The translations under genes were made by a program, and so were the position numbers. Below, in pieces: positions 17,146-64,000 of a DNA stretch of 64,000 bases; position 1 is the stretch's first letter, and the number at the start of each line of letters is the position of its first letter. The DNA lies in NCBI RefSeq assembly GCF_964204645.1, contig NC_134025.1, positions 26,516,299 to 26,580,298 of the forward strand. The letters run 5' to 3'. The notes under the pieces are model-generated. The model was not told where the DNA came from and made no database searches. It saw only the letters and a program-made list of their open reading frames with translations. This DNA is from Tubulanus polymorphus (Eukaryota; Animalia; Nemertea).

Positions 17146-17212
17146 ATGTTGGCAATGTGTGGTGTCTTGATATTCGTTTTATCATTGCTCTACGGAATCG
17201 GCAATGGGCAAG
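17146..17212 (+). CDS. Signal-peptide exon S1 of gene A
   Basis: MLAMCGVLIFVLSLLYGIGNGQ followed by G|gtaag (67 nt, phase 1). Confidence 0.85.
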
Positions 17213-20200
17213 GTAAGAATCGGCGGATTTAGAAAGCGTGGCAAGCAATATTAAATTTTTGGCGCGCTCGTCGTCAGTTTCTACAATATGATTATATGAA
17301 TTTTAGAGATTTTCTTCAAATAAACATTTACCAATTTGCCGCTTAAAATCCTGGTTAATCGAATGTTACGATGTTTGGTGTAATCAAAATTGATATTCGA
17401 TAAACATGTATATCGATACATATGATTAAAAGATACTTTTTGAATACGGTCAAGTTAGGACGCACTATTATCAGAGTGTCGTAAGATTGATCATAATGAG
17501 ATCACACGCATGTATACTCATGAGCCTAAACGGAAAAAAATAACTACCATTGGAAATAAATAGGATTGGTCGTTTCACAACTTGAAAAACAATTCTTATC
17601 ATAAATTGTAGATTTACAAATGACATCATTCACGACAAGTCCAGCCACATTTTACCTGGGTGAAGCACAGAATGCCGTTCCTCTAACGATTAATATAGAA
17701 AATGCCGATTCTTCAAACGTGATTCCTGCTGCAACATCTCCAAATGAGAACTATGTTTTCACATTCCAATTTGCAACGGGTACAACTCAAATTGGTTCAG
17801 TTATTACAATAAGCGGTATTACACTAGCAGAAAGGCAAGTGGGTCTTGCAGCAGCGACTACTCTAACATTTACAGGTGCTACAGCAGATTATCCTGCATT
17901 AGATGCAGTCACTTGTCCAGCAGCTACTCATCTATGTATGACTGTTGCCGAAAGTAGCACCGCTTACACAGATGCAGTAACAACTAATAATCAAGCATGT
18001 ATAACTATAACAAGAGTTTGCCAACCGGGTAAGTGCTTCTATACTTGAATCTCTGATGAATTTTAGAGATAGATTAATTCTAGAATGAATTGATTTTCAT
18101 TTAGACCCAACGGCTTCTACAGGTCCAACATGGGTTGGACTAACTACACTACCACAGGGTACTGCCACATCGGTAACGTTTGACTTACCAATACAAAATG
18201 TAGCTGCATCGGGACAAGGAAATGATATCGTAGCTGCACCTACGGGCACGAAAAACTTTGCTACGGAATTGTATTTTGCGTCAGATAGCGCCGGAGCAAC
18301 AGCAGTTACAGGGAATGTCGCGGCTACAGTGTCATCGAATGATGCCGCAGCTTTACCAGCAGATTCATCGACTACAGTTACTCTTCGAGCGACTGGAACT
18401 GTAACTTTACCATCTGCCATTTGCTATACTACCGACTTCTTGTGTGCCCGTGTGAAAGAAGGAGCTTCGTGTAAATGGGCTGATGCTGGCTCAACAAACA
18501 ATGTAATGTGTTCCTCGATAGTGTCAGTGAAAGCTTGCGATCCTGGTTTGTATAGATTTCTTACATTGTATTTACCGTATGGGATACCCATAAAATGAAC
18601 GGTCTTTGCATTTTCAGACCCTATCACAAAGACATTTACACCACTTAGTACAGCTGAGTATATTCAACCAAACACGTTCACGTTAACATTTGATATCGTT
18701 TTCGAAAACACTGCTCCAGGCGGTAATTCAGATATAGCCTCAGTAACGGCTCCTAATTCCAATTTCAAAGTCGACATAATTTTGTCTAATATTGACATGA
18801 CGACTTGTGCTGCGGGTTCAGTGTCGATTTCATCTACTTCAAATGTTGACCAAACAGTGTCTCTAGCAAGTGGAGCAGTAACAAGTACAATATCTGGCAG
18901 TGCTTCAATAACGGTGCCTTCAGCCACATCAGACTGCAATGATATGCGGTATATTTGCGCAAGGTTGAACGTCCCCGCAACAGCATCTTACACAGATAAA
19001 GACCTCACAAACAACTGTAAATGCGTCGATATATCGGCTCAGAAATCGTGCTTTCCTGGTACGTCTTATGATAATTTTGAGAAAATAATTTAGCCATTTG
19101 CATGAACGTGTTAGTTAATTATGCAGAAGATTTTACACGATTTTATTCATAATAGATCTAAAGCTGAATAGTATAACGGGTACGCCAGTATCAGGAGTTC
19201 TAAATGATGCATCAGCCACAAATTATAAAATCACAACTGCCTTGAAAAATAATGCCGTGAATTCAGCAATCTACTCAGGAAACAATATTCTAGCTACAAC
19301 TGGGACCGATTACAACTACGATATATCGGTTATCATTTCTAATGTTGATATCGGTGCTGGTGGAACTGATACTCTTGGACATTCTGCAATATCTATTTCA
19401 TCATATACAACACCAGCGCAAAGACAAACAGCTTTGGCAGCTCAGGCAACTACGTCGATCGTTGATATCGTCATGAGTATAACGATTGACCCGGCTTACT
19501 GTGCGAATGCGCTGTATTTATGTGCAACTGTGTCACGAGGTACCAACGCGAATTTCCCCACGGAAACAATCCTTGCAAACAATGCCCAATGTAAAGATAT
19601 ATCAGCAACTTCAGATAAAACATGTACACCAGGTAAGTACATTGTACGGCGAAAAGTCATTTTATCACAGTTATGAAATGACTTATGACTGGCGTGTGTA
19701 GTCCGTTGTCATTGCCGAATGTATGAATAATACAAAAGGTATCTTATTCATTTTTAGATCCTGTTATAAATACATTCACAGTATCATCGGCTCATAATTT
19801 TATTACTGGAGTTACTGTAGCTTCCGCCGCATTTGACATAACAATTGAGAACAGTGTCACTTCAAATGCTGATATAGCGGCTGCAACAGGAGGCAATATT
19901 AATTTCAAAACGAACCTGATTCTTGCTAGTGCTGATATGGTGACATGTACTGCAGGATTTACAAGTACAGTTTCAACGGTCAGTAGTCAAGTAGCACTAG
20001 CATCAGGAGCCACCACATCAGTAATCTCAGCTACAGGATCAGTAACAATGCCAACTGTAACAGCGGATTGTAACAATGCTAACTTTCTATGCGCGCAACT
20101 AGTAGCTGGAACTGGAGCAACTTATACAGATGGTGACACTACGAATAATTGCAAATGCGCGGATATAACTGCACAGAAATCCTGTTTCCCAGGTCGTATA

Positions 20201-63600: not shown

Positions 63601-64000
63601 TATATATATATATATATATATATATATATATATATATATATATATATATATATATATATATATATATATATATATATATATATATATATATATATATATA
63701 TATATATATATATATATATATATATATATATATATATATATATATATATATATATATATATATATATATATATATAACATTGTCTTTGTCTTAGGTGAAG
63801 ACACTTACCAGGTGTACATAGCTTATCTGCTACAGCTGATATATCTTTACATTGGCCATTATTTGTAGTGTCAGCTTCAGTCGCAAAATTGGCGTTTGTA
63901 CTTCGAGAGACAGTTGCACATAAATACAGCGCATTCGCACATTTAGCCGGGTCAATCGTTATACTCATGACGATATCAACGATCGACGTAGTTGCCTGAG
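57661..64000 (-). CDS. Upstream domain array of gene B (or of a tandem paralog), running off the window: D-E-F-C-D-E-F-C-F-C-D
   Basis: D (partial) 64000-63809, E 63551-63117, F 62935-62450, C 62360-61920, D 61794-61318, E 61241-60807, F 60693-60208, C 60120-59680, F 59281-58796, C 58694-58254, D 58137-57661. All are open, with standard lengths and phase 1-1. Confidence 0.88.
59509..59557 (-). pseudogene. Degenerate 3' fragment of an E/C-type exon
   Basis: Encodes [17 protein letters not shown]|gtat (compare [17 protein letters not shown]) exactly where D and E are missing from the C-D-E-F period. Confidence 0.7.
63579..63776. repeat. (TA)n microsatellite, about 99 units, in a D-E intron
   Basis: Uninterrupted TA dinucleotide run of ~198 bp. 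Confidence 0.98.

Follow-up and report, generated by a model that had tools for sequence, protein, structure and literature searches.

Inverted cadherin loci with arrays of a one-exon module in the nemertean Tubulanus polymorphus: candidate long surface tethers

What kind of surface protein is encoded by a cadherin gene that carries tens of copies of a non-cadherin domain in front of its cadherin repeats? This question is raised by two inverted paralogous cadherin loci of Tubulanus polymorphus, located on the + and the - strand of a 64-kb stretch of DNA (the window, i.e. the whole stretch analysed here). A first interpretation of the letters alone, in the following called the sequence-only reading, had proposed interchangeable domain cassettes that provide either Dscam- or protocadherin-like diversity or a tether of tunable length. 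The reading that we favour, to which we give about even chances, is that the loci encode long, calcium-stiffened surface tethers for which the whole array is spliced in order.

Using six-frame translation and splice-site mapping we obtained 62 whole modules, 39 on the + strand and 23 on the - strand, and one further module that is cut by the end of the window. This agrees with the at least 63 copies (39 and 24) that had been counted before. Modules are 140–160 residues long. All 62 module exons have a length that is a multiple of 3 with phase-1 AG and GT flanks, as the sequence-only reading had stated for its single-exon domains; by chance, AG..GT flanks at such lengths occur at 0.25% of random positions. 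A module of type S, present once per gene, is split across two 1-1 exons of 144 and 309 nucleotides (nt). The predicted introns (87 in total) are of GT-AG type except for a single GC-AG intron, which is found in gene B at 42590 (+), where the paralog C has GT. On both strands 12 exons follow 3' of the arrays and encode seven cadherin repeats, a membrane-proximal domain, one transmembrane (TM) helix and a tail, such that the predicted arrangement of an array N-terminal to about seven repeats, helix and tail was present in both loci. The 3' part of gene C, which covers the cadherin part and the four modules ahead of it, is identical letter for letter to the RefSeq model XP_074662363, with the cadherin set on the - strand corresponding exactly to its residues 613-1598.

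The count of 39 and 24 copies was thus retained, while the view of two undivided arrays was not. Three signal-peptide exons, called by eye from their hydrophobic N-terminus, are located in the window, and two of them are internal to the arrays (25771-25837 + and 57012-56955 -). Both internal leaders end with a phase-1 donor and are followed by modules of the same N-terminal types as those after the leader at 17146. Because the internal leaders split the arrays in this way, we describe them as 14+25 modules on the + strand (units A and B) and at least 11+13 modules on the - strand (units D and C). The features are the following:

17146..17212, + strand: leader (signal-peptide) exon of unit A, with phase-1 donor
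17612..25256, + strand: 14 module exons of unit A; the last exon keeps a donor, and read-through meets a stop after 2 codons
25257..25770, + strand: A-B gap of 514 nt, either an intron with an internal promoter or intergenic; no AATAAA or ATTAAA
25771..25837, + strand: internal leader exon of unit B
26131..40427, + strand: array of unit B, 25 modules; S split into 37662-37805 and 37885-38193
40539..43464, + strand: cadherin repeats of gene B, 9 exons; the 7th repeat finishes in the next exon
43553..44161, + strand: membrane-proximal domain and TM helix of gene B, 2 exons; first donor at 43729 or 43723
44259..44505, + strand: cytoplasmic tail of gene B, C-terminus IPMDNW-stop
45211..45499, - strand: cytoplasmic tail of gene C, C-terminus IPMDNW-stop
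45587..46186, - strand: membrane-proximal domain and TM helix of gene C, 2 exons
46281..49261, - strand: cadherin repeats of gene C, 9 exons, identical to XP_074662363
49363..56853, - strand: array of unit C, 13 modules; S split into 52115-51972 and 51891-51583
56955..57012, - strand: internal leader exon of unit C; additional in-frame ATG at 57045
57013..57660, - strand: D-C gap of 648 nt, with AATAAA at 57441 and two ATTAAA
57661..64000, - strand: unit D, at least 11 modules, start beyond the window; a strong donor is kept on the last exon

The modules are not interchangeable cassettes, as had been assumed, but belong to about 13 types in a fixed order. Unit A reads N1 N2 (P L Q I)x3 and unit B N1 N2 (P L Q I)x4 R J S N1' N2' R' K. 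Unit C, N1 N2 (P L Q I) R J S N1' N2' R' K, is like B but with a single P L Q I block, and the visible part of D reads (cut L) Q I P L Q I P I P L. At 59281-58254 (-) one block of unit D is without its L-Q pair (P I P L), with the alternation of odd and even types preserved. An intron of the same unit contains a (TA)n run of 198 nt (63579-63776). The two tails share the C-terminus IPMDNW at a tail identity of 33%, which makes it a probable binding motif.

In the reading that we favour, the upstream leader would give rise to a long form in which the internal leader is skipped in splicing, while use of the latter would yield a short form. The long forms would comprise 6,915 residues with 39 modules for A+B and at least 24 modules for D+C, the short forms 4,790 residues with 25 modules for B and 2,965 residues with 13 modules for C. 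Virtual translations of A (2,149 residues), B, C and A+B have no internal stops. The last donors of A (GTAAAT) and D (GTATGT) score like genuine ones: among 313 intronic GTs, 8.3% and 1.3%, respectively, reach or exceed their score. The acceptor with the best score downstream of each belongs to the first module exon of the unit that follows (B after A, C after D).

Alternatively, though with lower probability, the window may hold four separate genes: the cadherins B (25 modules) and C (13 modules) next to A (2,149 residues) and D, which would be module-only secreted proteins from partial duplication and would partner the anchored forms in coat, mucus or matrix. A, B and C each start with their own leader followed by N1 N2, read-through of the last donor of A leads to a stop after Gly-Lys, and poly(A) signals are present after D. 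Moreover, module-only proteins, secreted or anchored, are known in deuterostomes (P0004, P0006, P0010, P0012; numbers of this kind denote collected proteins). Opposed to this, both terminal donors are still consensus-like though the exons are old (synonymous divergence, dS, of 0.6-1.2 to their siblings). A read-through of 2 codons is also unremarkable, as the same procedure gives 2 codons at four array donors and 1 at another one. Neither AATAAA nor ATTAAA occurs in the 866 nt after unit A, which is weak evidence because 0.77 such signals would be expected per 514 nt. Overall we place the joining of A and D to the cadherin parts somewhat ahead.

A further explanation, which we consider very improbable, is that some copies are artefacts of assembly duplication or pseudo-exons of decaying repeats. 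The region is repetitive, and A, B and D have no protein model that we could find. Genuine copies are nonetheless favoured by four observations. No two modules are identical (top identity 97%, lowest dS 0.09), the DNA flanking the leaders does not align between units, all 62 modules are free of stops and frameshifts, and a relative with 21 modules exists in Lineus. The DNA upstream of the three leaders was no more similar than shuffled sequence, and a conserved promoter motif was not found there.

How many different proteins might such loci provide? Alternative leaders together with skipped 1-1 exons could generate many ectodomains and thereby a recognition code, in the manner of chelicerate sDscam and sponge aggregation factors. 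In-frame skipping is possible for any exon, and further units may exist past base 64000. Tandem leader-bearing 5' units before a shared 3' part resemble the sDscam cassettes (PMC4835542; this and the following PMC sources are cited from excerpts unless their main text is named), and the aggregation factor genes, which encode putative allorecognition factors, are likewise clustered with nearly all introns in phase 1 (PMC5400394). We nevertheless regard a recognition code as improbable. The types alternate instead of forming same-type clusters, and no more than two leaders are visible at each locus. The ratio of nonsynonymous to synonymous divergence (dN/dS) ranged from 0.08 to 0.39 by type and exceeded 1 in none of 213 same-type pairs, indicating purifying selection; pairs with saturated dS, e.g. 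of type S, were unscorable and whole-exon averages may mask single sites. A clustered hypervariable patch was absent in all four repeated types (p 0.09-0.46). The splice sites of the array are ordinary, as neither acceptor strength (62 array vs 24 cadherin/TM exons, p 0.43) nor donor strength (62 vs 22, p 0.54) set them apart, and the median intron measures 95 nt. Complementarity never linked an intron to more than one partner, below the averages of 2.0 and 1.1 in shuffled sequences, where the test covered perfect matches of at least 11 nt and G-U or bulged pairing is outside its reach.

Database isoforms point in the same direction. None of five isoform pairs differed by a whole module. The differences concerned the tail, 10 membrane-proximal residues, a shorter N-terminus, a cadherin exon of 50 residues and, in a crinoid, 3 substitutions within 6 residues. 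The 1-1 symmetry itself was rejected as a sign of alternative splicing, since 1-1 exons are typical of modular secreted and extracellular proteins (PMC7259759); they are the usual coding of such domains and therefore show array growth. Combinatorial splicing of the modules is thus disfavoured and the proposed Dscam- or protocadherin-like diversity is not borne out, while the tether of tunable length stands in the sense that more than one length may be made. A bolder proposal seems rather unlikely to us. It holds that the protocadherin/sDscam design was invented here independently for a third time, with alternative promoters that each have a leader and a giant multi-module head, a shared cadherin stalk and in-frame skipping that would yield an adhesion or self-recognition code of length and sequence, built from an undescribed CARDB-like domain.

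If the arrays grew by exon duplication, the relationships of the modules should reflect it. We calculated a tree from 61 of 114 collected modules, leaving out most same-type copies of the window, the S exons that each encode half a module and the modules of polycystins, hemichordates and P0002. The Tubulanus types P, Q, R and R' fall in one clade (99/97) and L, I, J and K in another (95/99), whereas in Lineus a clade of its own unites the eight outer modules of one kind (98/100), such that the repeated blocks of the two genera are separated. Modules of N1 type from both genera group together (97/98), with an unresolved backbone. We read this as an old, short membrane-proximal module core with separate expansions in two genera. 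In Tubulanus the last two modules would first have been copied together, followed by duplication in a block of four exons, and the arrays would have expanded by tandem duplication of such two- and four-exon blocks.

Apart from two pairs, copies of the same type are 70-97% alike. Units B and C are collinear across 6.2 kb at 80% identity. Between the two genes, R', K and the first cadherin repeat agree at 97-99% of residues compared to 51-80% for cadherin repeats 3-7, which suggests gene conversion between the two genes. J and S (37103-38193 + and 52662-51583 -) are 55-56% identical between B and C, with their neighbours R, R' and K at 97%; the J-S stretch may represent a fast or conversion-free island within the core.

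The module itself contains four Cys that are invariant, and Asp/Asn are conserved at both of its ends. D1, N31, N49 and a D..NN motif are among the conserved features, and a loose pattern for the acidic-residue/Asn motif is found in 59 of 62 modules. The module is not covered by any Pfam model, as none of 28 window modules scored above the cut-off. A profile built from 28 modules retrieved XP_074662363, and a search among 1.84 billion representatives returned 450 matches at E <=0.001 (197 at 1e-10). AlphaFold models of two modules (predicted local distance difference test scores of 83 and 87) are both beta-sandwiches, and the idea of the "Cys domain" as a new fold was rejected. For the better model the first Foldseek rank was the CARDB domain 3idu, which was solved with metal ions (E 5.4e-3, probability 1.00), while the first model placed CARDB-like domains lower in rank; neither model had a Foldseek match at E <=0.001. 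VIA alignment gave Z 6.7 for 3idu (root-mean-square deviation 3.8, 102 aligned) and Z 8.0 for the archaeal surface domain 2l0d (3.9, 108 aligned), the latter tying with the unrelated sandwiches Spo0M and GH2. CARDB clusters occupied seven of the nine Atlas rows shown (0.82-0.85), which we take as a lead only. On the sequence level, no window module out of 28 matched PF07705 (CARDB). In the relatives one of 29 was above the cut-off, in a repeat adjoining those found by the profile, and one of 75 was below it. Searches of the PDB with module profiles gave no convincing match, the best one (E 0.0024, a viral coat protein) being taken as chance. Our best guess from these models is an Ig-like beta-sandwich with CARDB, which has similar end motifs, as nearest in fold and features. 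The module differs from CARDB by its 140-160 residues with four conserved Cys and by the lack of a PF07705 match, i.e. membership in CARDB by sequence was not found.

With such a module a simple mechanical picture can be drawn. The conserved Asp/Asn would putatively bind calcium, and the rod would hold calcium at the cadherin junctions and probably also at the module junctions. Together with short linkers and the disulfides in each module this would provide a rod of ~90–200 nm, based on about 4.5 nm per domain. Held by one TM helix, it could serve as a link or spacer joining membranes, microvilli or surface coat, with a few tether lengths set by the paralog and the choice of leader.

Several points weigh against this picture. 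An AATAAA is located downstream of the read-through stop of D. The sole database model of the locus begins inside the split module, in another frame and without nine upstream modules. A protein model of A, B or D was not found in the collections searched, for which the length windows had gaps that are covered only by the search of the 1.84 billion representatives. The module-only relative P0010 ends 4 residues past its last Cys, as A would. Furthermore, CARDB is matched weakly (E 0.005; VIA Z 6.7-8.0, with ties to unrelated sandwiches), and the isoform sample is small, with database isoforms undercounting splicing in repeats.

Is the architecture confined to this window? The closest proteins are nemertean cadherins labelled 'uncharacterized' in RefSeq, from T. 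polymorphus (LOC141905319, LOC141913463, LOC141915007) and Lineus longissimus (LOC135485573, LOC135484544), as well as the Logan protein P0014. All parts described above, from the leader and the modules through the cadherin repeats and the membrane-proximal domain to TM helix and tail, are found in them, and no description of their function turned up in our searches. Of the T. polymorphus proteins, P0009 and P0158 have 4 modules each (P0232 clusters with P0158 at 90%), P0014 carries 2 and L. longissimus P0160 carries 5. The Lineus RefSeq model P0196 has leader, 21 modules, cadherins and TM helix within one frame of 4,313 residues. These numbers of 2, 4, 5 or 21 modules compare to 13-39 in the loci of the window. 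The search for the same architecture in a related genome, which had been suggested as a check, was therefore successful in Lineus (5 and 21 modules). Tubulanus is a palaeonemertean and Lineus belongs to another nemertean class.

Among the proteins already collected in the analysis, a profile of the membrane-proximal domain also matched long cadherins of Macrostomum, Liolophura and Sinanodonta (E 2e-12 to 4e-7). These proteins of a flatworm (P0164), a chiton (P0198) and a bivalve (P0199), named Fat4-like or hypothetical, share this domain and the great length with the nemertean family. In contrast to the latter, their length comes from cadherin repeats (Pfam marks 31 stretches in P0198 and 15 in P0164) and they contain no module. 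We infer from the shared domain that the nemertean family derived from such a spiralian cadherin, with modules replacing the outer cadherin repeats. The rods would then owe their length to a non-cadherin module, with separate expansions in two classes of nemerteans, whereas other spiralians add cadherin repeats.

The module itself is distributed more widely. Among the best 150 of the 450 matches it was seen in named crinoid, hemichordate, amphioxus and annelid proteins, and in some of 29 scanned relatives it is combined with Sushi/EGF, VWC/LDLa/Ig or PKD/REJ domains. Polycystin-1-like proteins of annelid and flatworm (P0054, P0079, P0072, P0126) contain a block of three modules each; one annelid module protein has 11 hydrophobic segments, and polycystin-1 has 11 membrane segments. 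The crinoid P0003 (5,459 residues) has 27-28 modules and one TM segment, with no cadherin call in scans that did not include Pfam. We are thus dealing with an Ig-like domain family without a name, which recurs in surface proteins of crinoid, hemichordate and amphioxus as well as in polycystin-like proteins. The cadherins of the window appear to form a real and apparently undescribed family, with most of the locus lacking a protein model in the collections searched. Should the choice of leader indeed tune tether length, a few set lengths would take the place of thousands of variants.

Literature searches, chiefly of openly readable papers without supplements, returned nothing on the family or the module and no hit for 'Tubulanus polymorphus' with 'cadherin'. 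Two proteome papers on nemertean mucus and proboscis (PMC12846013, PMC11768458) do not mention cadherin in their main text, and their supplements may hold these proteins. Cadherin-23 homologs are upregulated in a ribbon worm (PMC9132205), for which it could not be told whether they belong to the same family, and the excerpts of PMC10734073 and PMC5097364 added nothing specific on the family. Outside the two loci, the window contains the 3' exons of a Numb gene at 897-3418 (+; Pfam NumbF, E 3e-25) and open reading frames of 97, 97 and 414 residues at 9662-12396 (+). The frame at 10392 has a Cys-rich stretch that to us is reminiscent of a transposase zinc finger and gave no Pfam match.

Which known systems do these loci resemble? 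As in other members of the cadherin superfamily, tandem repeats are found (PF00028, E 1.8e-42, 6 stretches; 7 repeats by calcium-linker motifs). The catenin-binding domain PF01049 of classical cadherins was not found in P0001 at E up to 1. The EGF and LamG domains that Fat, Flamingo and type III cadherins carry on the membrane side, or else a 7-TM part, are lacking as well, since P0001, P0009, P0014, P0158, P0160 and P0196 match cadherin families only and have one TM segment. By sequence the window proteins are non-classical cadherins.

Non-cadherin domains N-terminal to the cadherin repeats of a TM protein have a precedent in Hedgling, which carries Hh and VWA at this position (PMC4054682), in agreement with our Pfam scan of P0194. 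Hedgling differs in that it has a single Hh and a single VWA, no array and no module, and neither Hh nor VWA was matched by Pfam in the modules or relatives. The N-terminal architecture that the sequence-only reading did not recognise thus indeed belongs to no named family and has no Pfam model for its module, while the placement as such is not new.

With chelicerate sDscam and clustered protocadherins the loci share tandem 5' units with their own leader and a common 3' part (PMC4835542); such leaders open A and B on the + strand and C on the - strand, the start of D being outside the window. In sDscam up to 40 or more cassettes of 1–2 Ig domains are found, compared to two units per locus in view with many ordered modules here. 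Dscam1 arrays are same-type exon clusters, in contrast to the P L Q I alternation in fixed order, and for their single intronic site that pairs with many selector sites no counterpart was found in our loci among perfect matches of at least 11 nt. In clustered protocadherins one variable exon codes for the whole ectodomain and the TM segment, whereas 12 exons are used here for the part from cadherin to tail. Sponge aggregation factors are likewise clustered large extracellular genes with repeated domains and phase-1 introns (154 of 155; PMC5400394), but are made of Calx-beta, VWA, VWD and Wreath domains with copies of ~25-31% identity, compared to mostly 70-97% in the cadherin-anchored arrays.

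The closest functional parallel is provided by the long non-classical cadherins that act as tethers, i.e. CDH23/PCDH15 in tip links and PCDH24/MLPCDH in intermicrovillar links (PMC4942974). The best PDB sequence matches were CDH23 fragments (E 1e-16), with protocadherins and CELSR1 close behind, which reflects generic repeat similarity. The CDH23, PCDH15 and CDHR link cadherins have a membrane-adjacent domain with a ferredoxin/SEA-like fold. Their rods consist entirely of cadherin repeats, in contrast to the module arrays described here. By analogy, and not by membership, the window proteins likely work like these tip-link and intermicrovillar cadherins.

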